A stretch of DNA of 64,000 nt from Alphaproteobacteria bacterium (GCA_965261735.1 OZ253470.1:416001-480000), one strand, 5' to 3'. Shown: positions 2,557-43,435, counted from the first letter of the stretch. Numbers and translations: made by a program. Notes: generated by a model from the letters alone, not told the origin.

Positions 2557-2945
2557 AGCCACCCCGGCGAAGCAGTCTCTTCATCGCATAGCTCGGCCAA
2601 GCCGCGGGAAACAGGGCCCGTTTCGCGGTCAAACGGAATTCTGAGCTCCTGAACCCGGGAGCATTTCCGGCCATTGCCGGGGTTCCCGGCGTGCGGTCTC
2701 CGCGAGCGCGATGCAAGGGTGAGTTTGGTGGCAACAGGGAATTTTTGCGATTACGGCCTCAAAACAGGGAGATTGTAGCGAACTGCCGACCAAAATGAAG
2801 AAATTATCTTTTTTTATCAATGACTTCTGAACTTTCCTGTTTTTCTGCAGAAGGGCAGTCGATATCAGGGAAGCAAATGAAGGGAACAGGAAATAATCCG
2901 GCCCGTCTTGCCGTAGTCGAGTGAGCGGGATGTGGGTGCCAATCC

Positions 2946-4535
2946 CTATTCCGGCGATGTTGCAATTCCGATTTGGACGGCTTGTTGCGACCAGGCGAGC
3001 GGTATTGGGCCCTTGAGGAGCTGTGTCAGTGTTACCCCTGCGGATTGGCGACCTTCAACAATCGCTCTTTGGATCTCCGGTGCCAGAAAGGCCAGGCGAA
3101 CGAGCTGGCGGCGATAGGGCGTATCCGGTGCTGTGACGAGCACGGGCAATCCGCCATCATCGTGGTGCAGCATGGCGTGTGCGGAGCGGAGCGCCTTGAC
3201 CAGAACAGGGTCCGGCATGTGTCCCGCACTTGGGCCCTTGAGAACCCAGGTCTCGCCACGACGCCGGACAAGGGGCAGATGCAGTCTGGCGAGACGCGCA
3301 TCCACAGGATCCGGCTCGAGGCGTTCGTGCGGCTCGAGGCGCTGGCGCATCGCGACGATCCGGTCGATCGGCAGCAAGCAGTGCAGCGACTGATCGTGGA
3401 GCTCGGCGCGGACAACAAGCGTGATGGGATCGTCCGGACATCCCGCGATCACGCGACGCAGCACGGTCGCGAGGGCGACTTCGAGCGGTGGGGCGGATAT
3501 GCGCCGGATGGCTGTGTCGGATGGATCGCGCCTTGCCCCTTGCTGCAGCGGTGCCGAGACATAGTAGCGATAGAGCCTGCCACCCCGCCCATAAGAGAAG
3601 GTCGGCGACATCGGCCGACCATCCGCGTCGAAGAGGCGCCCGGCCAGAGGGGCATTCGCCTTTTGCTCGCGATTCGATGCCCGGCGGCGGGTGTTCGCGT
3701 CGAGCCGCGCCTGGACGGCCGCGAAGAGATCGCCATCGATGATGGCCTGGTGCCGGCCGGGATGCGCCCTCCCCTTGTGGACGATCATGCCGCGATAGAC
3801 TCTGTTGCGCAGCAGTTGAAAGAGCGCGCCACGACTGAACGGCCGGCCGCCGGATAGTCGACCCGCCCGCGTCACGCGCCGCTTCGAACGGATGCCCCGG
3901 TCCTCAAGCCATCGCTGCAGCGCGTGCACGGAGCCGAGATCGATATAGGCCCCGAAGATGGTGCGCACGATCTCGGCCTCCTCCTGGTTGACCGCCAGGG
4001 CGCGCGTGCCATCCCCAGGCGGGTCGTAGCCAAGCGGCACAGTGCCGCCCATCCACATGCCCTTGGCCTTGGAGGCCGCGATCTTGTCGCGTATGCGCTC
4101 GCCCGTCACCTCGCGCTCGAACTGCGCGAAGGACAAGAGCACGTTCAGTGTCAGGCGGCCCATGCTGGTCGTGGTGTTGAAGGCCTGGGTGACGCTGACG
4201 AAGCTGGCCCGGCGGCGATCGAAGATCTCGATCATGCGTGCGAAGTCGGGCAAGGACCGGGTCAGGCGGTCAATCTTGTAGACGACGATGACGTCGACCT
4301 TGCCGGCTTCGATGTCGCAGAGAAGCCGCTTGAGCGCCGGGCGCTCCATGGACGCGCCGGAGAAGCCGCCATCGTCGTAGCGGGCCCGGACTGCTCTCCA
4401 ACCTTCGCCGGCCTGGCTCTTCACATACGCCGCGCAGGCTTCGCGCTGCGCATCGAGGGAGTTGAACGCCTGCTCAAGGCCTTCCTCGCTGCTCTTCCTC
4501 GTATAGAGGGCGCAGTGGAGACGGGGCCGGCTCAT
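2946..4535 (-). CDS. Large serine recombinase (resolvase + recombinase domains)
   Basis: CALYTRKSSEEG, YDDGGFSG, VYKIDRLTRS, FAQFERE; ATG 4535 overlaps the upstream stop (ATGA). Confidence 0.92.
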   Translation of the reverse strand: MSRPRLHCALYTRKSSEEGLEQAFNSLDAQREACAAYVKSQAGEGWRAVRARYDDGGFSGASMERPALKRLLCDIEAGKVDVIVVYKIDRLTRSLPDFARMIEIFDRRRASFVSVTQAFNTTTSMGRLTLNVLLSFAQFEREVTGERIRDKIAASKAKGMWMGGTVPLGYDPPGDGTRALAVNQEEAEIVRTIFGAYIDLGSVHALQRWLEDRGIRSKRRVTRAGRLSGGRPFSRGALFQLLRNRVYRGMIVHKGRAHPGRHQAIIDGDLFAAVQARLDANTRRRASNREQKANAPLAGRLFDADGRPMSPTFSYGRGGRLYRYYVSAPLQQGARRDPSDTAIRRISAPPLEVALATVLRRVIAGCPDDPITLVVRAELHDQSLHCLLPIDRIVAMRQRLEPHERLEPDPVDARLARLHLPLVRRRGETWVLKGPSAGHMPDPVLVKALRSAHAMLHHDDGGLPVLVTAPDTPYRRQLVRLAFLAPEIQRAIVEGRQSAGVTLTQLLKGPIPLAWSQQAVQIGIATSPE

Positions 4536-4945
4536 TTGGCGGATCGGAGGCCGAAGAAGCGCGGGCCATTCCAACGCGTGCCCGCGATCGCGGTCGCGGC
4601 CGCGGAGAGGCTCTTGAAGAGTTGACCCCCGTGGCGAAACCCCTCTTCTTCGACCGTGACCTGGACGATCCGCCCCCGCCATTCACGCCGCAGCGTGGTC
4701 CCGATCCCGAGCTCAAGACCTTCTGCCTGGACCCGCTGGCGGCGCTTGAGCTGGCGCCGTGTGTCACGATCGAGACCGCCGAGAGCCTCTGCCTGCAACC
4801 GCCAGGCCAGACAATAACGCAACAGCGCGGCCGAGCGCAGCTTCGGCGGGACACCGTAGCGGTTGCGCCAAACCTCTCGAAGCCCTTCGAGACCAAGGGG
4901 CGTGAGCGCCTCGATCTCGTCCGCAAGCGGCGCCTCGCCGGTCAT
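4532..4945 (-). CDS. DUF2924 family protein
   Basis: LAWRLQAEALGGL, GTTLRREWRG, SLSAAATAIAGTRWNGPRFFGLR. Confidence 0.88.
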   Translation of the reverse strand: MTGEAPLADEIEALTPLGLEGLREVWRNRYGVPPKLRSAALLRYCLAWRLQAEALGGLDRDTRRQLKRRQRVQAEGLELGIGTTLRREWRGRIVQVTVEEEGFRHGGQLFKSLSAAATAIAGTRWNGPRFFGLRSAK

Positions 4946-5238
4946 GTCACCGGTTGCTCGATGCGGTAGCGCCGCAGGCCCCCTTCTTTCTCGGACCGGA
5001 TGACGTGGCCCTTGCGTCGCAGCGCACCGGCGAGCCCGCCTCGAACCGAATGGGGCTGCCAGCCCGTTGCCTTACAGAGTTCGGCGATGGTCGCGCCGCC
5101 CGGGGCACTGAGATGGGCGACGAGAAGAGCGAGCTTCGTGGTCCCCGGCGGCTTCAGAGCTGTCGCCTTTGAGTTCTTGCGGTTGGTCGCCTTCGCAGCG
5201 CGCGATCCCGACTTTTTCCTTAACGGCTTGTTGGTCAT
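4942..5238 (-). CDS. DUF3489 family protein (HTH-like)
   Basis: TKLALLVAHL, GATIAELCKATGWQPHSVRG; RBS GGAGGAG before ATG 5238. Confidence 0.85.
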   Translation of the reverse strand: MTNKPLRKKSGSRAAKATNRKNSKATALKPPGTTKLALLVAHLSAPGGATIAELCKATGWQPHSVRGGLAGALRRKGHVIRSEKEGGLRRYRIEQPVT

Positions 5239-5419
5239 GGTGTTCTCCTCCGGTATTGCGGCGCAGATCGGCGCCGCTACCGGGGCAAGCCCGGGGTGGC
5301 CGGGCGTGGTCGCACTGACGCTCCTTTGCGCCGGCAAGTCCAGTGCTCTTGCACGACTCGGCGACTGCAACAGCCCGGCCTTACAGCGTCGAGCTCCGCA
5401 TTCAGGACACGTTCCGACA

Positions 5420-5992
5420 GCCCTTTCTTCGAGGCGTCGTCGCGGCCAACCATGCGCTTTGTAGCTGTGAAGACGGAGGAACAGCAGGCTCGGGGCAGGG
5501 AGTATGAGAAGCTGGCTCGGCAATGTGCGGCGGAGAATGCCGATCATGTCCGGTACCTGGCGCGCTTGATCGAGTTGGAGCTGATAGACCGCGAAGCCCG
5601 CATGGTCGAGCGACGCATCAAGGCGGCGAGGTTCCCTTCGATCAAGAGCCTGGAGAGTTTCGGCTTCGATGCGATCCCCACACTCAACAAGAAACTGGTT
5701 GTGGATCTGGCCCGCTCGGATTTTGTCGATCCACACGAGAACGTCATCGCGCTTGGCCCCAGCGGTGTCGGCAAATCCCATGTCGCCATCGCCCTGGGCG
5801 TGGCGGCATGCCAGCGAGGCATAAGAACCCGCTTCGCCACCGCCGCCGTGATTGTGCATGAACTCATCGAGGCCCACGACGAGAAGCGGCTCTTGCGCCT
5901 GCAAAGGCAACTTGCCAGCCACGAGTTGCTGATCATCGACGAACTCGGCTTCGTTCCTCTCTCGAAGACTGGCGCCGAGCTATTGTTCGAAC
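5420..5992 (+). pseudogene. istB: IS110 transposase scrap fused to an IS21 IstB ATPase fragment
   Basis: RPTMRFVAVKTEEQQARG joined to REYEKLARQCAAEN...GPSGVGKS...LLIIDELGFVP; cut at 5993 by an IS1595 end. Confidence 0.8.
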
Positions 5993-6214
5993 CTTGCCTA
6001 TCCGGTTTACACCCACACCCACTAGGGCTAGAATGGGCGCAAACCGGATATAGGGGAGCGCGCCATGGATGTTCTCGACCGCGCCGATCTCCCATTCCCG
6101 CATTCGCTACCCGAGTTCCAGCGACTTTTCCCCGATGATGCGGCCTGCGCCGCCTACCTGGAGAAAGCCCGCTGGGGAGACGGCTTTGCCTGCCCGCACT
6201 GCGGCACGGCGGGA
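5993..6214 (+). mobile_element. Truncated IS1595-family element (left end only)
   Basis: Near-identical to the start of 51521-52625; IR CTTGCCTATCCGG. Confidence 0.9.
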
Positions 6215-6661
6215 TCGCCGCCGACAGGATCGGTGCGCCCGGATCGCCGGCAACAATGCCATTCCGCGCCACCAACGCCGCCAATTGGTCCTCAATCATC
6301 CTGATCGGCGCGAAGATGGCCGTCCAGTCGAAGGCGAATTGCACGTCGAGCGGTTTCGAGTCACGCTCGACGGGTTGGGAGGGTTCCATATGGGGAATCC
6401 CGGTTAAAGATCGCGCAAATCAAGGACGAATAAGATCGGGTTAGCTGGAAGGTCAGAATGACAGAGGATGAAAAGAACGCGGAAAAGCTGCGGGTGCTTG
6501 AGCGGTACTCAGAACTGCAATCCACTATCGAATGCCTTCGCAGTCGGATTCTTCGGTGGCACGGCTATCTTTCGCAGGTCTATACCAATATCGAAGGTGT
6601 GAGGTGGCCTCGGTTTGTCGGACAGCTTGGCGGCTTGATTAAGGTGTATTCCAGTTGTCGT

Positions 6662-7597
6662 TCATGCCGCCAGAATCCCTTTGCATCGATCTCCTTGCCG
6701 TTGTTGTTGCGCCTGTGGGGATGTGGGCAAGGCGCGTAGCGGCTTGTCCATCATATCCACAGGCGGGGCGCCGCGGTAGGCCTCGGCCGGCGTTTCCCCC
6801 CCGAGCGCCGAGTGCGGCCTCTCGGTGTTGTAGAAGTCGATCCACTCGCCGATGACGCGCCGGGCCTCGAAGCCGTCGGCGAGCTCGCGCAGATAGACGG
6901 CCTCGTATTTGAGCGAGCGCCACAGCCGCTCAATGAAGATGTTGTCCAGGCACCGGCCCCTGCCGTCCATCGAGATCCGGATGCCGGTCTCCCGCAAGCG
7001 CCCGGTGAAGGCGAAGCCGGTGAACTGGCTGCCCTGGTCGGTATTGAAGATCTCCGGCGTGCCATGGCGGGCCAGCGCCTCGTCGAGCGCGTCTGTGCAG
7101 AAGCCCGCATCCAGGGTGTTCGACAGACGCCAAGCCAGCACATGCCGGTTGGCCCAGTCCATGATCGCCACCAGGTAAAGAAAGCCGCGCCGCACCGGGA
7201 TGTAGGTGATGTCGGCGCACCAGACATGGTTCGCCCGCTCGATCGTCAAGCCTCTGAGCAGATAGGGGTAGACCCGGTGCTCGGGATGCGGATCGCTGGT
7301 GCGCGGCGCCCGATAGATCGCCTGAAGCCCCATCAGGCGCATCAGACGACCGGCCCGGCGACGACCGACGCGCACGCCCTCGCGGCGTAGATGACGGACC
7401 ATCTGACGGGCGCCGTAGAACGGATACTTCAGGAACAACTCATCAATGCGCCGCATCAGCGCCAGGGTCTCCGGGCTCTCGCCCTTGGGCGTGTAATAGA
7501 GCGAGGAGCGTCCGATCGACAGCAAACGGCATTGACGGCTCAAGCTCAGCGCCGGGTGAGCGCGTATCACCATCGTTCGCCTCTCGGCCCGGCTCAT
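6662..7597 (-). CDS. IS3 OrfB (DDE integrase core)
   Basis: WCADITYI, FNTDQGSQF, DNIFIERLWRSLKYE. Confidence 0.95.
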   Translation of the reverse strand: MSRAERRTMVIRAHPALSLSRQCRLLSIGRSSLYYTPKGESPETLALMRRIDELFLKYPFYGARQMVRHLRREGVRVGRRRAGRLMRLMGLQAIYRAPRTSDPHPEHRVYPYLLRGLTIERANHVWCADITYIPVRRGFLYLVAIMDWANRHVLAWRLSNTLDAGFCTDALDEALARHGTPEIFNTDQGSQFTGFAFTGRLRETGIRISMDGRGRCLDNIFIERLWRSLKYEAVYLRELADGFEARRVIGEWIDFYNTERPHSALGGETPAEAYRGAPPVDMMDKPLRALPTSPQAQQQRQGDRCKGILAA

Positions 7598-7875
7598 CGA
7601 CCGGACCCTCGAGACAAAAAATCCCGCTCCACCGTCAACTCGCCGATCTTCGCGTGAAGATCACGGATCTCGCTCTCATGGTCCCGACGGCGGCGCTCGC
7701 CCCCGTTCGAAAACACTTCGCCAAGACCATCGATCGCCTGCCGCTTCCATGTGCTCACTTGGTTCGGATGAACCTGGTGCTGCGAGGCGATCTCCTGAAG
7801 CGTCCGGTCGCCACGAAGCGCCTCAAGCGCGATCTTCGCCTTCAGCTCCCCGGAAAACCTGCGTCTCTTACTCAT
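7594..7875 (-). CDS. IS3 OrfA (HTH)
   Basis: KRRRFSGELKAKIALEA...VHPNQVSTWK. Confidence 0.93.
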   Translation of the reverse strand: MSKRRRFSGELKAKIALEALRGDRTLQEIASQHQVHPNQVSTWKRQAIDGLGEVFSNGGERRRRDHESEIRDLHAKIGELTVERDFLSRGSGR

Positions 7876-8383
7876 CGCGTATCCCTCCTCAGTCGGCGGA
7901 ATACACCTTAAAAACCTGTCCGATTTTCCGGGGCCACCTCAGTGCCAAGGGCCTAGCCGACTGCATGCCGTTGCTGGATAACGTCGTTGAGGGAGCTGGT
8001 GATGTGCGGATCGTTGTCGACATTGATGGCTTGTCAAAGGCGATCCACGAGCGCCGCCAATTGGAAGAGTCGCTCAGGCGCATGAATCTCGGGGCGCTGA
8101 TACAGAGGCCCTAGTCCTGGCCTGCGGCGGCGGGCGTCAAGGGACTTTGGTCACTTTCGTATATAAATCCCATAAAAAGGCGATGTAGTTTAAGAGTCGA
8201 GATTAGGGCATTTTCTAAGCTTTTGATATTTCGCCTCTTTTCCCGTATACCGTTGATTTCTTTGGATTATTTGTTTTCATTCCATACGCCATGCGGTCGC
8301 TCGCGGCCACCGATATACAAAAAAACGCGGACTCGGCGAGATACGGGCGTGCATACCACCGGGGTGGGCGGAGCCTCCCCGGC

Positions 8384-8810
8384 TCAGCGACGACCGGCGA
8401 GACGGGCGATTGCATCGCGGAACGCCGCCGTGCGCGCCACCCCGTTATGGCTGGCGTTGGCGACTTCCATGAATGTTGCGGTGACACCACGCGCCTCGAG
8501 TGCCGCCATGTAGTCGCGCGCGAGCACAGGCATGGTGTTGGTGTCTTTGCTGCCCGTCAACGCGATAACCTCGACATTGGTGGAAACCGCATCCACAAAG
8601 GCGTGCGGAGAGCGGCTGCGGGCCCATGGGCGGCGGCCCCGCATCCGTCGCCACTTGCCTATGTTGCACGGACAGGCAGCGAGGACCGCCGCACCGACAA
8701 GTCCGGCGTACCGGCCGAGGATGACGGCGCCTATGGCGGCGCCCCCGGAATGACCGACAAATACGACGCGTTCGGCGCCATGGTGGGATTTCAGTTCGGC
8801 AATGGCACGT
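8384..8810 (-). pseudogene. Alpha/beta-hydrolase, N-terminally truncated
   Basis: GHSGG nucleophile elbow, GSKD and SHNG motifs. Confidence 0.6.
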
Positions 8811-8992
8811 AAATTTCCCTTGTCGGCGCCGGCGGCGATTAACTTGGTTTGGCGGTAGAATACATCCAGCACATCGGTTCAAGTTGAACGACGTGAAAAG
8901 GGAAACGGCAAACTGGCGTGTAACAGTGGCAATCAGTTGCACCAGCCGGGCCACGCGGCAGTATAAGAGGCTTGAAATGAGAGGTTCAGGAA

Positions 8993-9328
8993 ATGGCTAT
9001 CGATGAGACCGGGCTCACCAAAGGTCTGGTGAGAAAATTGAACGCGCTTCGGAAATCTGTCGGCGACGACCTCGCCGAAGAGGTCTTCGCAAGGTGGCTG
9101 GAGCGGGAGGCTGCCTCACAAGCCAGGAGCAAGCCAGATCCCGTGGCGATGAAGATCGTCGAGGCTCTCGCGGGCTTTGAGAATGACCCGAAGTTCAATC
9201 TCGGAAATTATGGCTACACACTGCGCCGCGCCAAAGGCAAGGGTGCGTCGGGCTTCATCGCATACAAGAATGAAAAGGCGGATAGAGCGCCGACCCCGTC
9301 TTCTGAAGTTGAGGAGCTCAGTCGATGA
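8993..9328 (+). CDS. Small hypothetical protein
   Basis: Plausible RBS; decayed paralog at 20567-20728. Confidence 0.65.
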   Translation: MAIDETGLTKGLVRKLNALRKSVGDDLAEEVFARWLEREAASQARSKPDPVAMKIVEALAGFENDPKFNLGNYGYTLRRAKGKGASGFIAYKNEKADRAPTPSSEVEELSR

Positions 9329-9645
9329 CCGCCTTTGATGACCGCAAAACAGCCGCCGAAGCCAAGTTCACGCATGATCAGGAGTTCCAGTTCAAGACCA
9401 TCGCGCGGCGCAACAAGCTGCTCGGCCTGTGGGCAGCGGAGCAAATGGGCATTTCTGGCGCGGATGCCGAAGCCTACGCCAAGCAGGTCGTGATCGCCGA
9501 TTTTGAAGAGCCGGGCGATGCCGATGTGTTGCGGAAGGTGCTCGGCGACCTGACTGACAAAGGGATCGCGACGGACGAGCACAAGGTGCGTCACGAGATG
9601 ACCCGCCTGCTCGAGGAAGCCAAAACGCAGGTTTCGATCGAATAG
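9325..9645 (+). CDS. DUF1476 protein, zeta-subunit F1Fo-ATPase inhibitor family
   Basis: MTAFDDR...EAKF.HD.E..FK..ARRNKLLGLWAA...DFEEPGD. Confidence 0.9.
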   Translation: MTAFDDRKTAAEAKFTHDQEFQFKTIARRNKLLGLWAAEQMGISGADAEAYAKQVVIADFEEPGDADVLRKVLGDLTDKGIATDEHKVRHEMTRLLEEAKTQVSIE

Positions 9646-9786
9646 AACGCGATCATTATCAACAGGCTGGCACCGCGGGATCCCGGTCCGTCAGCAACGC
9701 AAAGCTATGCAACCCCCGCAGCATATATTGGCCCGCATGGCCCTCGTGCCCCTACTCGCCGTCCAGTCCAGCCGCGTACCACCGAC

Positions 9787-9857
9787 GAACCGCCGTGTAC
9801 GGACCCGTACGCACGGTGGTGTGGGAGGGGTGGAGCCCTGAGGCTCCCCCTATGCCG
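9787..9857 (+). ncRNA. Group II intron domain V/VI remnant
   Basis: GAACCGCCGTGTACGGACCCGTACGCACGGTGGTGTGGGAGG followed by a DVI hairpin GGAGCC-CTGA-GGCTCC; no RT gene. Confidence 0.85.
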
Positions 9858-9950
9858 TCCCCTCAGCACCTGCCCGACGGATGCGTGTTCCAAATTCGTT
9901 GCCCGGTAGCGGCCGGCTTCTGTAAAACTCTGGCAACCGAATTGAAGAAG
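9858..9950 (+). pseudogene. C-terminal scrap of an oligopeptide ABC ATPase
   Basis: LPDGCVFQIRCPVAAGFC matches the P.GC.F..RCP.A...C motif. Confidence 0.5.
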
Positions 9951-10058
9951 TCGCGTCAAAGCGTCTTGTCGCAATCTCTGCGCTGCTGTCCTCGTGGCGG
10001 GCGTCGATCGACGCTCTGCGCGGCTCTTGCTGAATTGCTCAGTACGGGAGAAGGCAAT

Positions 10059-11756
10059 ATGAGACTGACATCGTTGGCGATCATGATGGTCGCCGCCCTG
10101 CTCGTATCCGGCACTGCGGCGGCCGAGCGAGGAAGTGACGGTCATGTCAGCATCATCTACTGGCAGGCCCCGTCGATCCTCAATCCGTATTTGTCGGGCG
10201 GTACGAAAGATCACGAGGCCGCATCGATGGTCCTGGAACCGCTTGCCCGATTCGACGAGTCGGGAAACCTTACTCCCTGGTTGGCTGCGTCTGTGCCAAC
10301 GGTGGGAAATGGCGGTGTGTCTGCTGACTTGAAGACCATTACATGGACGCTGCGTGACGGCCTCCTGTGGTCGGACGGAAGCCCGGTGACGGTCGCCGAT
10401 GTTGTGTTTACCGCCGAGTACTGCCGCGATACCGCCGGCGGCTGTTCGCAACTGGCGAAGTTTGACGAGGTGACCGAGGTCAAAGCGGTCGACGATCTGA
10501 CCGTGGAGGTCACCTTCGGGGTCCCCAAGCCTTATCCCTACGGCCCCTTCGTCGGTGCCACATCGCCGATCCTGCAGAAGGCGCAATTCGCGGATTGCAC
10601 CGGCGCCCGGGCTCCGGAATGTGCCGAAGCCAATTTCATCCCAATCGGCACCGGCCCGTTTCGAGTGACGGAGTTCCGGTCGAACGACGTGATCTCCCTG
10701 GAAGCCAACCCCCACTATCGCGATCCGGCAAAGCCGGCCTTCGCGACCGTTGCGTTCAAAGGCGGGGGCGATGCCGCGGCGGCGGCGCGCGCCGTTCTCG
10801 AAACCGGCGAATTCGACTATGCCTGGAACCTGCAACTCGCTCCAGATGTACTGCAGAGTATGCAGGCTGCGGGAAAGGGGGTGGTGGTTTCAAGTTTCGG
10901 CACTCTGGTCGAGCGGCTCTTGGTTAACCTGACCGATCCGGCTCCAGAGCTCGGCAACGCACGCTCCACCCGCGCCCATCCGCACCCGTTTCTGTCCGAA
11001 CGCGCCGTTCGCAAGGCCCTGTCGATGGCTATCGACCGTGAGCTTCTCGTTGAGGTCGGCTACGGCCAAGCCGCACGCCCGACCTGCAATGTCGTTCCGG
11101 CGCCAGAGGTCTACGCGTCGGCCGCGAACGAGGATTGTCTGGTGCAGGACATCGAAGACGCAAAGCGTTTGCTCGACGAAGCCGGCTGGCGGCCGGGGCC
11201 GGACGGGATACGGCAGAAGGACGGCGTACGGCTTTCGATCCTGTACCAGACCTCGACCAACGCGGTTCGACAGGATTTCCAGGCTCTGATCAAGCAATGG
11301 TGGTCCGAGATCGGAGTTGAGGTGGAACTCCGCGATATCGACGCCTCAGTGTTTTTCGGCGGTGACCCGGGCAGACCGGATACATACGAGAAATTCTTCG
11401 CCGATATCGAAATGTATGCGAACAACTTCGAGGGCACAGACCCGGAACCGTATCTCGGCGGCTGGCGCTGCGGCAACGAACCCCGGCCGGCCTCGCAGTG
11501 GCGGGGTGCGAACGTGCCACGCTACTGCAGCGAGGAATACGATCGGCTGCTTGGGGAAATGGCGAAGACTGGCGATCTCGATGAAAGGGCTCGCCTCGCC
11601 AAGGCAATGAACGACCTGCTGGTTCAGGACCATGTGTTGATCCCGCTGGTTCACCGCGGTCGCGTGTCAGCCCATGCGCACTCGCTGGGCGGTGTCCTGC
11701 TGAATACCTGGGACAGCGAGATCTGGAACATCGCCGATTGGTATCGGCTTCGATGA
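10059..11756 (+). CDS. ABC transporter substrate-binding protein, family 5 (peptide)
   Basis: Signal peptide, WSDGSPVTVADVVFT, PIGTGPF, VRKALSMAIDR. Confidence 0.92.
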   Translation: MRLTSLAIMMVAALLVSGTAAAERGSDGHVSIIYWQAPSILNPYLSGGTKDHEAASMVLEPLARFDESGNLTPWLAASVPTVGNGGVSADLKTITWTLRDGLLWSDGSPVTVADVVFTAEYCRDTAGGCSQLAKFDEVTEVKAVDDLTVEVTFGVPKPYPYGPFVGATSPILQKAQFADCTGARAPECAEANFIPIGTGPFRVTEFRSNDVISLEANPHYRDPAKPAFATVAFKGGGDAAAAARAVLETGEFDYAWNLQLAPDVLQSMQAAGKGVVVSSFGTLVERLLVNLTDPAPELGNARSTRAHPHPFLSERAVRKALSMAIDRELLVEVGYGQAARPTCNVVPAPEVYASAANEDCLVQDIEDAKRLLDEAGWRPGPDGIRQKDGVRLSILYQTSTNAVRQDFQALIKQWWSEIGVEVELRDIDASVFFGGDPGRPDTYEKFFADIEMYANNFEGTDPEPYLGGWRCGNEPRPASQWRGANVPRYCSEEYDRLLGEMAKTGDLDERARLAKAMNDLLVQDHVLIPLVHRGRVSAHAHSLGGVLLNTWDSEIWNIADWYRLR

Positions 11757-11759
11757 CAC

Positions 11760-12065
11760 CGCGACGGAGAGAGGTCTCGAGGTTTGCGCGCTTGAACGGC
11801 GGCGGTATGTTTGTCTGCTGTCCGGCGCATGAGCGTTTCCGATCCTGGGTCAATATCATGCCCGGAAACATTAAGAGCGCGATCGCTGGCACCTGCCGTA
11901 AGCTCGATCCCGGTAACGCCGAGCGCTGCCTCGCCAGCTTCGCTTGACGTGACAACTATCGCTACCAACACCAGACCGTGTTCCCCGCTTCGTCCATAGC
12001 GGCGTCTGACCGCAATCCATGCTCTATCGTCTCCTTGTTGCCGGATGACTGTCATGGATAAGCAG
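11760..12065 (+). pseudogene. Decayed IS1595 transposase C-terminus and right IR
   Basis: GNIKSAIAGTCRKL homologous to 21197-22132; end CATGGATAAGCAG. Confidence 0.7.
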
Positions 12066-12120
12066 ATGGACGACTTACCGTTCGCTGAGATCAAACTCGA
12101 TTTGAGATCGATTCCTGTCG

Positions 12121-12205
12121 ATTGACATCATCCGCGAGCGTAGCGGGCTCAGGGATGTGCGGTTGCATGATCTTCGCCACTCTTAGGCGTCGTGAGCTTT
12201 GGCGG
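12121..12205 (+). pseudogene. Tyrosine integrase scrap
   Basis: RSGLRDVRLHDLRHS followed by a stop. Confidence 0.55.
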
Positions 12206-12345
12206 CTCAAGTTTCCGAACCAATTACCGATCCTGAGCGTGGCCCCGGCGGCCCATCAGGCTGGCCACGTCATCAACTCCGGCCTTGCACGGCAGGCCAA
12301 GCCTGCATTACTTGCCGACCAGCAATGCCCTCTGTAACGGTAGAT

Positions 12346-14910: not shown

Positions 14911-15526
14911 GGTGCTGTCACGGTAACTGGCTGGTGTCAGCTGCGGGTGGCGAGTAGCTTCCTGTTATGAACAAGATCAGCTACCGCCGACATCGGTTTC
15001 CTGCAGAGATAATCCAGCGCGCCGTCTGGCTGTGTTTTCGGTTTCCGCTCAGTTACCGCGATGTGGAGGATCTGCTCGCTGAACGTGGTGTCGATGTTTC
15101 TTACGAGACGATACGGCGCTGGGCTTTAAAGTTTGGGCAGGCCTATGCCCGAAAACTGAGACAATCACGCCCTCGACCAGACGACCGGTGGCACCTTGAT
15201 GAGGTGTTTTCCTCCATCAACGGAAAACGGATGTATCTATGGCGGGCGGTGGACAGCGAGGGTGAGGTGCTGGATATCTTGGTTCAGTCCCGGAGGAACA
15301 AGAAAGCAGCACTCAAGCTGATGCGCAAACTGCGGCGCAAAGGTTTCTCTCCACCCACGCCGCCATCTACAACACCTTCAATGTCCAACGTCATCTGATC
15401 ACTCGCAAGACAATGCGCCAATTCCGCGGTGACGCGATGAACACGTGGCGGACCGTGACCGCTGCTGCCTGAGCCGCTCAGTTCAGACGTTCAACTGCGA
15501 CCTGCCTTCGTTAAGTTGACAGCACC
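14911..15526 (+). mobile_element. IS6 family element, internally deleted (about 190 bp)
   Basis: IR GGTGCTGTCA/TGACAGCACC; near-identical to 30177-30982. Confidence 0.92.
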
Positions 15527-30982: not shown

Positions 30983-31174
30983 TTGGGGCGGAGCTACAGA
31001 GCTCACGGTGGCGCCTAAGCGCACTGACCTAGGCGACTTTCCGAACTACCGGACGCACCGCCACCGCCTCTACGGCGAACAGGAAGGCGTGTGTGTCGGC
31101 TGCGACACGCACTTCCCGTTCCGGGTGATGGACGTTGACCACATGCTGCCCCGCTCCAAGGGCGGGACCGACCA
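30983..31174 (+). pseudogene. HNH domain fragment
   Basis: LYGEQEGVCVGC...VDHMLPRSKGGTDH. Confidence 0.7.
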
Positions 31175-31955
31175 TCACGGTGAGCATGCGGAACTTCCTC
31201 CCATCGTGTGTTCGATCCATGACGAAGTCATAGGACCAGACGTGATGGGGCCAGCACGGCCGCAGACGGATGCAGGATCCGTCGTTGAGCCACAGCCGGC
31301 CCCGTTTCGGTTGCTTCTGTGGGACCTTCAGCCCCTCCCGCCGCCAGATGCGCTGGACCCGCTTGGCGTTCACGTGCCAACCTTCGGTCCTGAGCAAGGC
31401 AGTGATCCGCCGATAGCCATATCTGCCATACTGGCTGGCCAAGCGGATGATCGCGGCCGTGAGTGCCTCTTCATCATCCCAACCACGGGGTCTCTTGCGC
31501 TGGGTTGAGCGATGTTGGCCTGCAACAGCACAGGCACGTCGCTCGGAGATTCCCAATTCGGCCTGGAGATGATCAACACACTGCCGGCGACGGGCGGGGC
31601 TTAGCAATTTCCCTCAAGCGCCTCTTTCAAGATCAGCTTATCCAACGTCAGATCCGAGATCGCCTTCCGGAGACGGCCATTCTCCTTCTCCAGGTCCTTC
31701 AGACGCTTGGCCTGGTCAGTACGAAGGCCGCCATATTCCTTGCGCCAGCGATAGTAACTCTGCTCCGATACGCCGAGCGTGCGACAAGCTTGACCAATGG
31801 ACTGGCCCTGCGCCAAGGCCACCTCGGCTTCGCGCAACATGCTGATAATCTGTTCTGGGGTGTAGCGTTTACGGCTCATTTTGTCCTCCTTTCGAGGGGG
31901 CAAAATGCGCCAAACTCTCTTAACAAATCTGGACCACTTTTAGGGGGTCACTCCA
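31175..31955 (-). mobile_element. IS3 family (IS407-like) element, truncated in orfB; orfA 31601-31879
   Basis: MSRKRYTPEQII, YGRYGYRRI, WSYDFV; TG terminus at 31955. Confidence 0.88.
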
Positions 31956-36432: not shown

Positions 36433-38356
36433 CTAGCGATGATACTCGCGTAATAGGATTAGAACCCTGTCCAGACCGGTCTGTGTTGTTTTCCAATGGA
36501 ACGGCGTCTGGTCGCGGGTGCGCACCTTAAGTGCCGCACGGTAGGCGGCCACGGCCTGCTCTAGCAGGCTGCTGAAAAAGTCCTCGCCTTTGCAGTTGTG
36601 ACATGATTCTGTGATTCCTTCGAGTGATGGAGGATGGCATGCGGGGTCGAGATCAAAGCAGTGGCAATTTATTCAGCTACGTAGACTTGGAAGAGCGTGT
36701 TCCGGATGATCATCCGCTGCGTCTGATCCGTGAGATCGTGAACGACGTATTGGGGTCTCTATCTTCGGAGTTCGAGACGCTTTATTCCCACATGGGTCGC
36801 CCATCGATCCCGCCGGAGAAGCTTCTTCGAGCGTTACTGTTGCAGGCGTTTTATTCGATCCGCTCGCAGCGTCAGCTGATGGAGCAGCTAAACTTCAACA
36901 TGCTGTTTTGCTGGTTTGTGGGGCTTGGGCTGGACGATGGCGTGTGGGACGCCAGCGCGTTCTGCCACAACCGGGACCGTCTTCTGGAGGCGGAGGTTTC
37001 GGGGCAGCTGCTTGCGGGGGTTATCCAGCACCACAAGGTAGGGGGACTATTGAGCCGGGATCATTTTTCGGTAGACGGAACATTGATCGAGGCCTGGGCG
37101 TCGATGAAGAGCTTTCGTCCCAAAGGTGAGGACGATGGCGACGGGGGATCGGGGCGCAACGCCGCGCGGGATTTTCATGGCGAGAAACGCTCGAACGCGA
37201 CCCATGCAAGCACCACTGATCCGGACGCCCGGCTTTATCGCAAGGGTAATGGCCGGGAAAGCAAGCTGTGTTACATGGGCCATGCGCTGACGGAGAACCG
37301 CCATGGTCTGGCAGTCGGCGGCGGCGTGACCATTGCGTCGGGCACGGCGGAACGCGAAGCCGCCTTTGATCTGATCGACAGGCATCGCCCGGTGGAGAGT
37401 AGAGGCGGGCGGCGTCGGATCACGGTGGGCGGGGACAAGGGTTTTGACGTCGCGGATTTTGTCGAGGAACTGCGGCACCGCAAGGTGACCCCCCATATCG
37501 CCGTCCAGGACCACGTCACCAAGACCGGCAAGCGGCGCAAGACCAAGATAGACGGGCGCACGACGCGCCATCCCGGTTACGGCGTCAGCCAACGTTGCCG
37601 CAAGCGCATCGAGGAGGTCTTCGGCTGGGTCAAGACGAGCGCGGGATTGAGCAAGACCAAATTCCGGGGCCGCCACCGGGTCGACGCTTCGTTCACCCTG
37701 GCCTTGGCCGCCTACAACCTCGTCCGACTACCCAGACTGCTGGCGGAGGCGCCAACATGACGGGCGATGCCGGCACGCCGCTGACCGCAAAGTGGCAGAT
37801 CATCGAACTGGACGAAGCCCAGGGCATCGGATCGGTCGAGATTGAAGACGGTTTCACCCTAAGACACGAAATCTCATTTCATTTCGGCGATGAATCCGAG
37901 TTCAAGGCCCGGCAATGATGACTTTTTCAGCAGCCTGCTAGATATTTTTGCCCTCCGCCTCGTTGCCCCAAAGCCATCAGGGCACCACCGAGATTGTTTT
38001 GTGTTGTTGACCAATCGTGAGGCTCACGCTCGCGGGTACGAACCTCGAGCGCCGCACGGTAGGCAACCACGGCTTGCTTCAGGAATCTGGTGCCTGTGTC
38101 AGTATCTTGCTCTGCTAGTGCCTTCAAGGTGTTACCCAATTTGGTCTGTATGGACGCCCAATCGAGCGGGGCCTGTTCCCGAAGGAGTTCCTTGAGCGCC
38201 GCCCGATGGGCGACCACGGCCTGCTTCAGAAGGTCGGGGTCTTTCTTCCCGTAGCCTAAGGCCCACAAGGCGTCGCCGAGATTGGTCTGTAATGCCCAAT
38301 CGAGCGGGACCTGTTCGCGCTTGTACACCTCAAGCACCGCGCGGTAGGCGGCCACG
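36433..38356 (-). pseudogene. TPR-repeat protein split by IS5 and truncated by IS21
   Basis: Repeats of QAV.AYRAAL.V.TRE..P.DW...Q.NLG on both sides of the IS5. Confidence 0.8.
36565..37937 (+). mobile_element. IS5 family element (transposase 36639-37760, short passenger ORF 37757-37918)
   Basis: IR CAGGCTGCTGAAAAAGTC, CTAG DR; HFSVDGTLIEAWAS, DKGFD, RKRIEEVFGW. Confidence 0.93.
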
Positions 38357-38572
38357 TGTCAATTGCGACTGAAAATTTCCCACTTTTGTCGATCGAAATA
38401 TTTCTCACTTTGAGCGTTCGGTCGTACCCCCAGACGCGGTGTTTGGGGTGTCGGACTTGGTCGAGCTGTAGGTAACCGGGTTGGCGCAGCGACCGCCAAG
38501 AGTCTGGCGGCGACAACCCGGTTATCCACAGCGGGCGGGTGTCACCGCTCCTGTCTCCGTTTGAGCCGGCGA

Positions 38573-39370
38573 TCACGCGGCGGCTCTTTTCCTGCGTCGA
38601 TCCGAGCCGGACTGCAGCAGGTTCTGATGCTCCTTCATCCGGTAGCTGTTGCCCCGGATGTTGACGATGTGGCAGTGGTGCACAAGGCGGTCGATGAGAG
38701 CCGCCGCCATGACCTCGTCGCCGAGCACGCCACCCCAGTCCTCGAAACCCTTGTTCGACGTCAGCACAGTCGACGCCCTCTCGTGCCGGGCGTTGATGAG
38801 CTGGAAGAAGAGCACGGCGCCGTCCTGGTTGACCGGCAGGTAGCCGATCTCGTCGACCACCAGCAGGGCCGGATGGGTGAGCACGCGCAGCCGCCGGGTC
38901 AGATTGCCGGCGGCCTTGGCCTCGGTGAGGGACTCGATCAGCGCCGCGAGCGTGCCGTAGTAGACGCGCCGGCCGGCCTCGGCCGCCGCGATCGCGAGGC
39001 TGATCGCCAAGTGCGTTTTCCCGACGCCTGGTGGGCCGAGCAGGATCACGTTCTCGCCGCGGTCCAGGAAGCCGAGCTCGTGCAAGCTCTCGATCTGCTC
39101 GCGCTTGATGCTGGGCTGGAAGGCGAAGTCGAACTGATCGAGCGTCTTCACAGCCGGCAGCCGCGAAGAGCGCATGGCGGTCTGGAGACGGCGGTTGTTG
39201 CGCAGCACGATCTGGGCGTTCAGCAACTGCTCGATGGCCTCGGCCGCCGAGATCGTGCCGCCGTCGGCGTCCGAGAGGATGCCGTCGACGGCCTCCAGCG
39301 CGCCCGGCATCTTGAGGTCCGCCAGCATTGCCCGCAGCCGGTCGCGCCGGGCCGGCGCCGGAGCGTTCAT
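38573..39370 (-). CDS. istB: IS21 helper ATPase IstB
   Basis: GPPGVGKT, LVVDEIGY, TSNK, IDRLVHH, GNSYR. Confidence 0.93.
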   Translation of the reverse strand: MNAPAPARRDRLRAMLADLKMPGALEAVDGILSDADGGTISAAEAIEQLLNAQIVLRNNRRLQTAMRSSRLPAVKTLDQFDFAFQPSIKREQIESLHELGFLDRGENVILLGPPGVGKTHLAISLAIAAAEAGRRVYYGTLAALIESLTEAKAAGNLTRRLRVLTHPALLVVDEIGYLPVNQDGAVLFFQLINARHERASTVLTSNKGFEDWGGVLGDEVMAAALIDRLVHHCHIVNIRGNSYRMKEHQNLLQSGSDRRRKRAAA

Positions 39371-39931
39371 TGCAGCGCCTCCGCATAGACACTAAGCGGT
39401 CGCTGCTCGACCTTCACGGTTGCCGGCAGTCGCCGCGGCGCGGGCTCCGGAGCATGCCGGACGCCGAGACGTCGATAGGGATGGTTCGCCAAGGGGAGAA
39501 GCACCGCTCGCTCGTCGCGCTCGAAGCGGTCGACAGGACGCTCCCCGGTCGTGGCATGCCGGCGGACGTTGGCTGTGCCCTCCAGCCAGCGCACGGCCTG
39601 CTCGTTGAGATCGTTGTCATTCGCAAACGAGCGGCCGTAGAAGAAGCTCTCGCGGATGTAGCGGATCGGGCGCTCCACTTTGCCCTTGGTCTGGGCCCGA
39701 TAGGGTCGGCACGAGCGCGGCATGAACCCCCAGTGCGCGGCGAACCGCAGAAACTCCTCGTTCAGCACCAGGCCGCCGCCGGCCCCGCGGTCGTCGGACA
39801 GCACCACGGCGCGCATCTGGTCGAACAGCAGCTCCTCCGGAACCCCGCCGAACCGGTCGAAGGCGCTCTCCAGACCTTCCATCAGGACCGGCATGGTCTG
39901 CCGAGTATAGAAGTGCAGCCACAGCAGCCGG
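39367..39931 (-). pseudogene. istA: IstA transposase, C-terminal half
   Basis: FGGVPEELLFDQM, CRPYRAQTKGKVER. Confidence 0.88.
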
Positions 39932-40035
39932 GTGAAGGCGTCGTTGGGCGACACCGTGGCAAACACCTTGCGTACGAACAGGGACAGGTCCGAGCGCAGG
40001 ATGGCATCGAGTTCAATGTAGCTCACCGCCGTCAC
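39932..40035 (-). pseudogene. N-terminal stub of a probable terminase large subunit-like gene
   Basis: ILRSDLSLFVRKVFATVSP directly after the DUF5681 gene. Confidence 0.55.
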
Positions 40036-40493
40036 CGTCCTCTCCTGCAGGTTTACGGCTGGCTTCGCCATTCTCTTGATGGTTCTCCCGACGCTTCCGT
40101 GCGCCGTGTGGCTTCTGCACCACTCCGGCCTGCCGCAACACCTTCTCGTCGTGCGCCTTCACGATCTCGGTGTCGGCCGCGTCCAGCCTGGTGGCCGCTT
40201 CGGCCATCTCTTCGTCGTCGTTGTAGAGCCGGGCGAGTCCGATCAAACTATCGAGCGCACGCACCTCCCCGCCGAGCGCCTTCTCGCGCAGCCGCATCAG
40301 GGCTGCATGCTGGGTCGATACGGTTTTGGCCTTGCCGTGATGGGTGACGCGGATCGGTTCCTCCAGCGTTTTTCAGATCCGTCGAGAAGTTGCGGCTTCC
40401 CCTGGGCCGGCCCCTTGGATTGCCGGATTGCCCCTTCTTGAACAGCGAGTGCCTGGGTGGCTTGCCATAGCCGACATCTTGGTCACGTCCCAT
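40013..40493 (-). pseudogene. DUF5681 protein (terminase small subunit-like), frameshifted near 40370
   Basis: VGYGKPP...FKKGQSGNPRGRPRG; second frame KALGGEVRA. Confidence 0.75.
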
Positions 40494-40502: not shown

Positions 40503-41801
40503 CTATTCGAGATCGGTCAGCGTTCTACCGCTATTCAGGTGCACGGGATCGTCCTCCGTGAACGTGCGGTATCGTCTCAGTGCGGTGTCGATGTATCCGG
40601 GGTCGACCTCAACGCCGTAACCGCGGCGCCCCGCGCGTTCGGCGGCGATGATGGTAGTACCCGATCCCGCAAAGGGGTCGAGCACGATCCCGCCGCGGCG
40701 CGAGCAATCGAGAACGGCGTCCTCGACCATGGCGACCGGTTTGACCGTCGGGTGCATTGCCAGTTGAGCGTCCCGATCGTTGCCGAATACGTTGACCCCG
40801 GCATAGTCCCAGACGTTCGTGCGGTTGCGCCCGTAGGCGCCGAGGTCGATGTTGTTGATGTGCGGCCCGGTCCCGGCCTTGAATACCGGGATGAACTCGT
40901 GCTTGGACCGATAGAGGGCGCCCATCCCGCCGTTCGTCTTGTTCCAGACGCAAATGTTCTTCAGCTCGGTGTAGACGCCACGCCCCACCGTCAACAGCTC
41001 GCGGATATGGCGCCAGTCCATGCAGATGTAATGGATGGCGCCGTCGCGGCTGTGCGTGTACAGGTGCTGCAGGACGGTTTCGAGGAAGTTTGAGAATTCG
41101 GCCTCGGACATCTCGCCCGATGCCATGGCGAACTCCTTGTGTCGCACACGCCCAAGTCCGCAGACATTGCCGTCGATCGGGACGTTGTAGGGTGGGTCCG
41201 TGAACACCATTTGGGCCAATTCGCCGTCGAGCAGCGTCTCGAAGGAACGCGGGTCCCTTGCATCCCCACACAGGAGCCGATGCTTGCCGAGTTGCCAGAG
41301 ATCGCCCGGAGCGGTCAGCGGCGGTGCATCGGCTTCGATCTCCGGCATAAGGTCTGCGTCGTCATCCGCCTCCACGGGGCCGATGATGAGCCCGTCGATC
41401 TCAGCCGTGTTGAAACCGGTAACCTCGATATCGAAGTCGAGCTCGATCGCGGTGAGCGCTTTGAGCTCGATCGAGAGAAGCTCCTCGTCCCAGCCGGCCA
41501 GCTCGGCCAGGCGGTTGTCGGCAATGATGTAGGCACGAACCTGTGCTTCGGTGAGGTCGCCCAGCCGGATCGCCGGAATCTCCTCCAGCCCGAGCAGCTT
41601 CGCCGCTTCCAGACGCCCGTGGCCCGCCACGACCCGCCGGCTCTCGTCGATGAGTACTGGGTTCGTCCAGCCAAAGATCTGGATCGACTGAGCAATCTGC
41701 CGGATCTGCTCCTTCGTATGCGTACGGGCGTTACCCGCATACGGCTTCAGGGTGGAGACCGCTATACGCTCGACCTTTAGGTCGCGAATGCGCTCAGACA
41801 T
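40503..41801 (-). CDS. ParB/Srx-like N-domain fused to an N4/N6 DNA methyltransferase
   Basis: NARTH, FGWTNPVL, AGHGR, ADNRLAE; TDPPY, HPTVKP, LDPFAGSGTT. Confidence 0.9.
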   Translation of the reverse strand: MSERIRDLKVERIAVSTLKPYAGNARTHTKEQIRQIAQSIQIFGWTNPVLIDESRRVVAGHGRLEAAKLLGLEEIPAIRLGDLTEAQVRAYIIADNRLAELAGWDEELLSIELKALTAIELDFDIEVTGFNTAEIDGLIIGPVEADDDADLMPEIEADAPPLTAPGDLWQLGKHRLLCGDARDPRSFETLLDGELAQMVFTDPPYNVPIDGNVCGLGRVRHKEFAMASGEMSEAEFSNFLETVLQHLYTHSRDGAIHYICMDWRHIRELLTVGRGVYTELKNICVWNKTNGGMGALYRSKHEFIPVFKAGTGPHINNIDLGAYGRNRTNVWDYAGVNVFGNDRDAQLAMHPTVKPVAMVEDAVLDCSRRGGIVLDPFAGSGTTIIAAERAGRRGYGVEVDPGYIDTALRRYRTFTEDDPVHLNSGRTLTDLE

Positions 41802-41988
41802 CGGATGAACTCCGGGTGTCGCCGAAATCGTCGGGAACGGCGTTGCATGACGCTGCCGGAACGCCGGCGTCAGGGATGGTCGATTGGAACTCGGCTCTTT
41901 GCCTTGGCGCGTCGTACCGGATCACCGGTCACCTCCCTGTCTCCGTTGACTGGAGACCCAAGGTGGCGTGATCCTTGGCTGGTTTCAT

Positions 41989-42657
41989 TCAAAATAATTG
42001 GCGTCTTTTCCGATATGCGGACGAGAGGGTTTGGACCGAGCGCCAGGAGTCCTCGCCATAGTAATAGTATCTCGCACCGATACGAGCAGCGAGCTCTGCC
42101 GGCGGATAGCGCAGGTGGGTCCAGCCGGCGGCATGACCTTCACGGGCTTTCCTCTTGATGAGGTTCTCCGTGTAGCGCCTGTACAGACCATTGACGATCA
42201 TATCGCGCTGACGCTTGTCGATTGGCGGCAGTGGCTGTCGACCCAGGGGCGGCTTGATATTCCCGGCGAGGAACTTACAGAGGTAGTCCAGAAGAACATT
42301 CGGGATCTCGCCTGCGTCTTCACGTCGCAAGACGTCGGCCAGCTCCGGGCCGCTGATAAAATCGCCCGACTGTATTCGTTTCGTGATGTGCCCCAGGTAG
42401 CGCCGGTGGGTCTCTCCGAGGTGTTGACTTTTTGAGTTGGGGACTTTCGGCCGACCTCTCCGTCTCCTGACTTCCCCGGCGAGGAATCGGCATAAGTAGT
42501 CCAAGAAGATTTTCGGAAAGGGGAGATTGTCCTTGTTTCGGAGGGCGTCCGCAAGGTTCTCACCGTCGATGTAGTCGCCCTTCTCGATGCGTCTTATTAA
42601 CCAATCGAAGCGATCAGAATTTATCCTAAATTCTGCCATCGTTTCTCTCTTGAACAA
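41989..42657 (-). CDS. Hypothetical protein with an internal duplication
   Basis: GDYIDGENLADALR..FLDYLCRFLAG..GR repeated as GDFISGPELADVLR..LLDYLCKFLAG..GR. Confidence 0.65.
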   Translation of the reverse strand: MFKRETMAEFRINSDRFDWLIRRIEKGDYIDGENLADALRNKDNLPFPKIFLDYLCRFLAGEVRRRRGRPKVPNSKSQHLGETHRRYLGHITKRIQSGDFISGPELADVLRREDAGEIPNVLLDYLCKFLAGNIKPPLGRQPLPPIDKRQRDMIVNGLYRRYTENLIKRKAREGHAAGWTHLRYPPAELAARIGARYYYYGEDSWRSVQTLSSAYRKRRQLF

Positions 42658-43240
42658 TTCTTCGGCACCTGGCTGGTGACCAATTTGCCGAAATCTCTAT
42701 GAGCGAACAGATGACCGCCTCCGATTTGAGTGGTCAGGTTTGTTCGTTAGTGTGTGATTGCCGTAGGTCAACGGCAACGATGGTTCCTGGATCCTATCCG
42801 CGACGACGAGCACTTGCGTTGAACCCCTCACCGCCCGGACTCCCGCCGGGTGGCGAGGGGGGAGGCACAGCTAACTCGGTGCATCTGACGCTGCTGGATG
42901 TGCCGAACTAGATCGGTATCGCGCTTCTGCTGCTTCCGCCGCTGATGGCCATGACGCCCGTAGCGGTGCCGCCGGCCAACGCAACGATCCCCATGGCGCT
43001 GCCGCCGCCGCAGTGGCATGAGGCTCTGTGAATCGGCTTGATGTGCATGTCAGTCAATAGGCGTCCTCAGTTCCGTGGTATTCAATCTCAGTTCTGCCTG
43101 AATTCTTTCAGCGTCTCTGAAATCAGCATACCGCGTTGGATTCTCAACCCCGCTTCCAATCACGATGAACTCGTACCCCAACTCCTGACACGCCGTCTTA
43201 TCCCAGGGTCCGTCACCAAAGTAGGTTCTTCGTGCTGGAA

Positions 43241-43435
43241 AATTCCCTGTTAGGCCAATAATAATTCCCTGTTCCGTGGCGTAGGGAATTAGGTCTCTAT
43301 TCCCTATGATATCAACGCCTTAGACGGCCCACTCCCGCCGATTTAAGGTCGAATCTGCAATAATTCCCTGTATTTTCCCTGTTTAACAGGGAATTGGCGC
43401 AGAGACAGGTTCGCAGCAGACTGCGTCCACCGCCA
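43241..43435 (+). repeat. CCCTGTT repeat module and att-like end (GGTTCG...CCGCCA)
   Basis: CCCTG at 43245/43267, palindrome TTCCCTGTTTAACAGGGAA 43375-43393; abrupt AT-rich DNA after 43435. Confidence 0.7.

Follow-up and report, generated by a model that had tools for sequence, protein, structure and literature searches.

Remnants of mobile-element modules around an insertion-sequence-rich interval in an alphaproteobacterial genome

The stretch of DNA analyzed here (hereafter, the window) comprises 64,000 nucleotides (nt) from an Alphaproteobacteria genome (GCA_965261735.1), corresponding to bases 416001-480000 of its single 5.03-Mb contig (OZ253470.1; genome completeness 98%). The window contains two co-oriented groups of genes on the minus strand, here termed the left and right halves. 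The left half is a trio encoding a DUF3489 protein, a DUF2924 protein and a large serine recombinase (LSR), and the right half encodes an ORF of its own (orf222), a methyltransferase with ParB_N and N6_N4_Mtase domains (ParB-MTase), a DUF5681 protein and the beginning of a terminase large subunit (TerL). A sequence-only reading had regarded these halves as the two sides of one 41-kb integrative element with 35 kb of cargo. We instead consider the interval to be bounded by the decayed remnants of one mobile-element family in an island rich in insertion sequences (IS), an interpretation for which we judge the probability to be evenly balanced. The window is a decayed instance of an element family that is apparently undescribed: no description was found in the portions consulted of the literature on its DUF names, satellites and serine recombinases.

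The interior of the interval is an accretion of IS and composite transposons, and not cargo selected by the element. Between positions 5388 and 39940, 68% of the sequence has another genomic copy at ≥90% identity and 45% has three or more (right flank, 12%), in a genome that is extremely IS-rich, one IS-end segment of the window having up to 316 other copies at the same threshold. Two IS3 copies (6600-7941 and 12346-13687) form inverted arms of 1282 nt that are 100% identical, and the region 6600-13687 is likely a composite transposon; an inverted IS6 pair (14911-15526 and 30177-30982, 99%) encloses a further 14.6 kb. Other interior elements include IS1595 copies, IS256, IS110, IS5-type and IS21, and the remaining interior genes are scattered metabolic genes and fragments. 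No phage structural family was detected in a Pfam scan of 56 ORFs of the window or in a PHROG scan of 22 interior and flanking ORFs, and the head, tail and lysis modules of an intact prophage were likewise absent between the ends in these scans. There is no trace of the element's missing middle at either inner edge within the window, and relatives of TerL match three places in the genome, none of them in the window. The interior thus yielded neither phage genes nor genes of the element, nothing remains of the element's middle, and the 41-kb element size is not supported either, as intact relatives span 3-10 kb.

The remaining observations behind the earlier proposal were sound. Pfam and homology scans confirm each gene that it named, at the place given and in every particular (Table 1), and its end points, 2557 and 43435, fall within 5 bases of the homology breakpoints at 2551/2552 and 43436. 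IS debris does cut the inner edge of both halves, and the recombinase side is intact (an uninterrupted trio) while the packaging side has decayed (a frameshifted DUF5681 gene and a 43-codon TerL stub). Gene order and orientation are compatible with one element. Overall, the earlier proposal is supported in part, and the 41-kb interval most probably does not form one unit.

The left half is one co-oriented unit of DUF3489, DUF2924 and LSR. The LSR has the composition of an integrase, with a catalytic Resolvase domain (PF00239, 1.6e-37, amino acids (aa) 58-210) followed by a Recombinase domain (PF07508, 9e-16, aa 234-329) and a length within the 450-700 aa range; it matches the PHROG integrase family phrog_95 at 1.5e-96, and is 92% identical over all 578 aa to the copy at genome position 229404-231137. 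Copies of the trio stop matching at 2551/2552, which is the center of a 17-nt imperfect dyad (site 2523-2580, with the inner perfect 8-nt pair GAGACTGC/GCAGTCTC), and no long target duplication was seen in the 32 loci tested (see below). Such a dyad is what a serine-integrase site would be expected to look like, and the position of the LSR crossover is resolved to no better than a few bases around ...GCCA. There is no tRNA gene within the window, and the recombinase end of the trio abuts a core resembling a tRNA end instead. The repeat modules that had been taken for attachment sites are real, but the left one belongs to a neighboring element copy and is not a chromosomal target.

The two repeat modules follow the same plan. 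Exact ACAGGGAA boxes occur 10 times in the window (five at 2344-2741 and five at 43243-43393), compared with a chance expectation of 1.2, and none of 100 shuffles reaches 10. Both modules combine distal boxes with a perfect 9+9 palindrome (TTCCCTGTT/AACAGGGAA; 2496-2514 in the left module) and a conserved core of ∼45 nt ending in ...GCCA, which is similar to the T arm and acceptor 3′ end of a tRNA; a direct repeat with 88% identity links 2480-2519 and 43359-43398. The left module holds phased ACAGGGAA/TTCCCTGT boxes, and its core ends in ...CACAGCCA. ARAGORN calls no RNA gene in the module cores, and Rfam gives chance-level matches below gathering scores on both modules. The genome contains eight such cores, seven of which carry the end of a trio at the same base: five continue after ...CACAGCCA with the recombinase-side end of the left-hand type of trio (family 1), and two continue after ...CCGCCA with the end of a second type (family 2), whose own ends are without boxes. 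The right module is the only free core of the eight and runs into unique DNA; no dyad is present across 43436, and its inner edge (43234/43235) is a breakpoint in every comparison. The box counts and breakpoints, together with the tRNA tallies given below, agree with an assignment of the AACAGGGA field as the attachment-site arms of a serine-recombinase element, and are compatible with it.

Family-2 trios (44% aa identity to family 1) provide an example of trios that move alone. These form a 2.96-kb unit with only DUF3489, DUF2924 and LSR, which has the same two boundaries (within ∼10 nt) in at least three contexts, at 97-98% identity: a module core (L005:14931-17900; loci are referred to by L numbers), a tRNA-Ser(cga) gene (L007), and a tRNA-Ser(gct) gene (L006, genome 482242-484946, 2.2 kb to the right of the window). 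A truncated fourth copy is also present (L011). Because the unit keeps its boundaries across contexts, a trio can arrive alone; in L005 it abuts a 107-nt remnant of a family-1 end on one side and the module core on the other, and therefore entered an existing junction. The unit looks like a minimal autonomous serine-recombinase element.

We surveyed relatives of the recombinase in one genome per species (514 confirmed) and relatives of the ParB-MTase in metagenome contigs (253 confirmed), examined the best 80 loci of each, and placed the recombinases in a quick IQ-TREE phylogeny. In nearly all 80 recombinase loci the gene immediately before the recombinase encodes DUF2924, and DUF3489 usually precedes the recombinase too. 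The gene set that the sequence-only reading had put forward is a genuine and widespread neighborhood: a ParB-MTase gene is found ≤6.5 kb upstream of the trio in 46 of these 80 loci (39 divergent, 7 co-oriented) and in 42 of the 66 loci that have ≥3 kb of upstream sequence, and 21 of the 80 ParB-MTase loci from metagenomes also hold a recombinase. The contiguous order given in that reading (ParB-MTase, DUF5681, TerL, DUF3489, DUF2924, LSR) occupies 5.6 kb adjoining a tRNA-Met gene in metagenome contig L150, and occurs again in L177 and L191. Versions without capsid genes exist as well: in L063 and L082, the 2.5-3.7 kb that separate TerL from the trio hold unnamed reverse-strand ORFs, none of which belongs to a portal or capsid family; in all five of these loci, TerL is directly or nearly directly before the trio. 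A divergent arrangement is seen in L035, where the whole unit of ∼5.3 kb (DUF5681, DUF5681 and ParB-MTase, divergent from DUF3489, DUF2924 and LSR) is situated between sulfatase genes and tRNA-Ser. Four loci (L137, L168, L173, and L208) have the permuted order trio, boxes, ParB-MTase, such as tandem copies or circular forms would give. Both the gene association and the capsid-less members are real, while in the window the ParB-MTase and DUF5681 genes are 35 kb from the trio and not the few kb that is usual in the family.

In the relatives, tRNA genes are targeted. Of the 70 loci with enough sequence beyond the recombinase to hold a tRNA gene, 48 have a convergent one within 900 nt after it (tRNA-Ser in 40, Gln in 4, Arg in 2, and Asn and Val in 1 each), and many loci have box clusters between the recombinase stop and the tRNA gene. 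None of the 32 loci tested for element sizing shows a significant upstream copy of its tRNA 3′ end as a direct repeat, which is what a serine recombinase would lead one to expect, and in 14 loci no pseudo-tRNA motif was found at the far end of divergent-type elements.

The right half has fewer close counterparts. Among 101 genomes searched, orf222 was found only in the window's own genome, and a close intact copy of the half is absent from the material surveyed, with no ParB-MTase above 63% identity in metagenome contigs and none above 59% in 100 relatives. Of the two ORFs into which the DUF5681 gene is split, 40248-40493 carries the DUF5681 N-terminal motif (4.1e-08) and 40013-40297 matches the following part of the single DUF5681 gene in L135. 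The TerL stub is 70% identical over 23 aa to the N-terminus of the terminase large subunit in L102, a short match of modest support, and this L102 gene comes after ParB-MTase and DUF5681. A role for DUF5681 as a small terminase was considered and found no support: the best E-value of its profile against PDB sequences is 0.49, and an AlphaFold model (pLDDT 70.6) yielded nothing at E ≤0.001 in a Foldseek search of PDB. The only PHROG match of DUF5681 is an unnamed family, phrog_26239.

Whether the two halves came from one copy of an element or from two is a separate matter, on which we consider descent from different copies slightly more likely, the probability of a single source copy falling somewhat short of even. 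The alternative in its full form, in which one ancestral element extended from 43436 to 2552, lost its middle and was inflated by insertions of IS and composite transposons, is possible though doubtful. This ancestor would have had the order terminal arm, orf222, ParB-MTase, DUF5681, TerL, middle, DUF3489, DUF2924, LSR, and a size of ∼8-10 kb, or else that of a roughly 40-kb prophage. The IS debris at both inner edges and the mostly repeated interior are in keeping with such a history, as is the proximity of ParB-MTase and trio in relatives; the absence of any remnant of the middle at those edges, and of TerL relatives in the window, speaks against it.

The nearest intact relatives of the trio (L001 in this genome, and L012 and L015 in other genomes; 90-92% aa identity, at tRNA-Gln) are divergent in arrangement and carry two DUF5681 genes and a ParB-MTase of another clade (clade A), to which the clade-B ParB-MTase of the window is 52% identical. 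A match of the halves to different lineages had been named as an outcome that would refute the single element, and this result comes near to doing so; however, it is not decisive, because modules shuffle in the element family, and the clade mismatch is weak evidence because clade-B ParB-MTases pair with recombinases of both major clades in relatives. Discordant identities are seen in L002, whose orf222 region matches the window at 99.9% over 1126 nt and whose trio reaches only 94%; the orf222 region and the trio therefore have different histories. Additionally, trios arrive alone at module cores elsewhere, and the edge at 43234/43235 is a recurrent breakpoint, beyond which the right module continues into other DNA in L003, L005 and L013, while the orf222 region of L002 continues into a tyrosine-integrase gene. 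In L215 (genome 2241647-2247927), a 492-aa ORF fuses a fragment of orf222 to TerL minus its first ∼57 residues. An IS comes next, and beyond it are what is left of a portal gene (phrog_12, 1.9e-10) and a gene resembling those of tyrosine integrases. Because this orf222-type copy has a portal remnant and a tyrosine integrase, the right half may be the end of an ordinary prophage.

Several observations weigh against our preferred interpretation of two separate remnants. The order, orientation and end geometry of the halves are exactly those of the co-oriented relatives L063, L082, L150, L177 and L191, and the right module shares its box motif and core plan with the arms used by family-1 recombinases. 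With only ∼6 family-1 trios in 5 Mb, a co-oriented trio 35 kb downstream of a ParB-MTase end is unlikely to occur by chance, unless elements cluster strongly. The pairing of clade-B ParB-MTases with both recombinase clades weakens what would otherwise be a stronger objection to a common origin. Furthermore, L002 offers a parallel on one strand, in which orf222 is followed by IS debris with an IS21 fragment, a small phage-type HNH remnant and, directly downstream of the latter, a family-1 trio; this HNH remnant is 72-75% identical (nt) to two HNH-type ORFs elsewhere in the genome. A 63-aa frame upstream of the HNH remnant was considered as a terminase C-terminus and set aside, as neither Pfam nor PHROG supports it.

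It is improbable that the 41-kb interval is still excisable as a unit, with the LSR acting on 43436 and 2552 and the IS-borne genes as cargo. LSR, DUF2924 and DUF3489 are uninterrupted, 116-157 nt of the region upstream of them is kept, and the two sites point in the same direction and share one core and box plan. The right site, however, is without the partner half of a dyad, and TerL and DUF5681 are both broken, and any packaging step is therefore gone. Serine integrases normally depend on a directionality factor for excision; none was identified here, and no dedicated test for one was made. An assembly artifact, in which the halves were misjoined through collapsed IS copies, is very improbable: repeats such as the segment with up to 316 other copies can mislead assemblers, but the single contig and its completeness suggest a long-read assembly, and nothing in the window is chimeric-looking.

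The interpretation of the window as decayed remnants of one family can be framed in a model. The family combines an integration trio (DUF3489, DUF2924, and LSR) with a packaging-type module (ParB-MTase, DUF5681, and often TerL). Judging from the anatomy of the junctions, the LSR would recombine a symmetric element site with the 3′ end of a tRNA gene, and the phased boxes are predicted binding sites for accessory proteins, with DUF2924 and DUF3489 as candidates. Resident copies would themselves be targets, because a tRNA-end-like core is present on some element ends; the LSR could also join an element to the core on the terminal arm of such a copy, which would explain the occupied cores and produce arrays. 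The left half would then be a complete trio fused at 2551/2552 to the terminal arm of a resident copy, and the right half the leading part of a phage-like member, with its terminal arm, orf222, ParB-MTase, a broken DUF5681 gene and the 43 codons of TerL, while the 34.5 kb between the halves would have been built by deletion and by insertion of IS and composite transposons.

A broader proposal, which we offer tentatively and consider unlikely in its entirety, is that the window keeps the two ends of elements of 3-10 kb that form a widespread and undescribed class in Alphaproteobacteria. Members of this class would use an LSR with two DNA-binding partners on arm-type boxes to capture tRNA 3′ ends, would have no capsid but encode their own terminase, ParB-MTase and DUF5681 for packing into the head of a helper phage or a gene transfer agent, and would offer the tRNA-like cores at their ends as landing pads for further copies. 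With regard to the DNA-binding partners, DUF2924 partly matches the RAMA DNA-binding domain according to a passage of one report (PMC11342252).

Among described systems, the window halves share their logic, by description, with phage WO of Wolbachia, one of the LSR prophages of Alphaproteobacteria. In the sections of the phage WO work drawn on here, the recombinase is immediately downstream of a DUF2924 protein, and the packaging genes start at a position equivalent to that of the ParB-MTase/DUF5681/TerL module (PMC10299305); the sister copy L215 similarly has TerL and then a portal remnant. Unlike phage WO, the window is without structural genes, many relatives measure just 3-10 kb and yielded neither a portal nor a capsid gene, and DUF3489, DUF5681 and box arms are unmentioned for WO in those same sections.

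The LSR of the window is also comparable to the phiC31, Bxb1 and TP901-1 integrases in its Resolvase and Recombinase domains, its size of ∼580 aa and its phrog_95 assignment, and in having a dyad centered on the crossover and no long direct target repeat flanking the elements. Integrases of the phiC31, Bxb1 and TP901-1 type use short, simple sites without accessory arms. The present elements differ in the phased ACAGGGAA boxes that flank the crossover, in the co-encoded DUF2924 and DUF3489, and in the targeting of tRNA 3′ ends. The family resembles phage-inducible chromosomal islands (PICI), P4-like elements and tycheposons in its small size, its integrase, its tRNA-proximal integration, the lack of capsid genes in many members and its variable cargo, as in L031 and L069; in contrast to these, the present family has the large subunit of a terminase and a ParB-MTase in place of known hijacking genes. 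A resemblance to composite transposons and zones of IS accretion (inverted IS3 arms, the IS6 pair, and segments duplicated at 100%) concerns only the interior filling and not the bounding modules.

The numbers of relatives recovered from both surveys show that the family is very common in Alphaproteobacteria. If confirmed, three features would be of note beyond this family: a serine integrase that seemingly depends on arm sites in phase together with two small partners; a serine recombinase, and not one of the tyrosine type, that targets the 3′ ends of tRNA genes precisely; and capsid-less units with a terminase, which would be candidates for satellites that exploit phages or gene transfer agents. 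Arrays arising because element ends imitate their own target would in turn become sinks for IS. The copy in the window is wreckage, yet it is informative alongside its relatives.

Table 1. Coordinates of the two halves, their repeat modules and the adjoining features in the window.
Feature	Position	Strand	Basis or remark
IS110-family element cutting the parent element of the left module	847-2225	-	Transposase_20, DEDD_Tnp_IS110; ∼10 copies at 98-99.7%
Left module, terminal arm of another element copy	2243-2551	+	96-97.5% identical to two other genomic copies
Symmetric recombination site	2523-2580	.	17-nt arms, 76% complementary, centered on 2551/2552
Recombinase-proximal arm of trio element	2552-2945	-	Further boxes at 2735, 2765, 2866
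Large serine recombinase (LSR), 578 aa, uninterrupted	2946-4682	-	Pfam
DUF2924 protein, 137 aa, intact	4532-4945	-	Pfam 3.3e-37; 99% identical to copy A
DUF3489 protein, 98 aa, intact	4942-5238	-	Domain at end of ORF ending at 4942, 2.3e-20
Upstream (promoter) region of trio	5239-5395	-	Common to other copies up to 5354-5395
IS debris, left inner edge	5386-5991	.	IS-end fragments 5386-5497; IstB-like fragment ∼5500-5991
Interior: IS elements, passenger genes, gene fragments	5992-38342	.	Pfam and PHROG scans, copy count
Truncated IS21, cut inside istA	38343-39940	-	99.6-99.9% identical to 10 other copies
Terminase large subunit (TerL), first 43 codons only	39943-40071	-	Ends where IS21 starts
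DUF5681 gene, split by frameshift near 40248-40297	40013-40493	-	Two ORFs
ParB_N + N6_N4_Mtase methyltransferase, 432 aa, intact, clade B	40503-41801	-	Pfam
orf222	41989-42657	-	No Pfam or PHROG family
Right module	43235-43436	+	Box and core plan as left module; core ends ...CCACCGCCA; no trio attached
AT-rich flank, unique in genome	43437-43572	.	IS follows at 43573-45197

Further features of the window concern its repeated DNA. Two genes lie between the IS3 arms, one for the zeta subunit of an ATPase inhibitor (9325-9645) and one for a solute-binding protein of family 5 (9795-11756). A 3-kb piece with an OpuAC gene (28181-31175) has a second copy, 100% identical, at genome 4320181-4323175. 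The high-copy IS segments are 5984-6220 (an IS1595-type end), 12343-14668 and 51520-52626, which overlap with as many as 175 and 316 other copies at ≥90% identity. The region 36473-38356 contains, to one side of an IS5-type element, a unit of ∼61-102 nt in four diverged copies (66-77%) at intervals of 138-147 nt. The same-family genomes compared for synteny or an empty site match the window at only ∼65-86% (nt) outside IS copies and are rearranged, and adjacent interior genes of the window lie 180-315 kb apart in genomes G001 and G004. Parts of the region 2300-5600 occur in 12 of the 16 public datasets listed (shares 0.20-0.65), all 12 of which are assembled contigs.

Individual relatives carry additional genes and repeats. 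A recD2-type helicase gene is found near L215, as it is beside the module in L013 of another genome. Cargo genes include an ADP-ribosylglycohydrolase fused to a phosphatase domain, located after TerL (L069:3479-4957); in L031 (6275-9085), genes for LysR, a hydrolase and PNPOx separate the trio from the DUF5681 genes. The unrelated metagenome contig L137 has five ACAGGGA boxes (L137:9075-9236), four of them at exact 21-nt spacing, which are 765 nt upstream of its ParB-MTase gene and 1.85 kb downstream of its trio. A different LSR, followed by two RepB/ParB_N genes, is encoded in L121:14600-18934 and L122:5338-8865, and the LSR locus in L121 adjoins a box-and-core module located where the element meets the chromosome.

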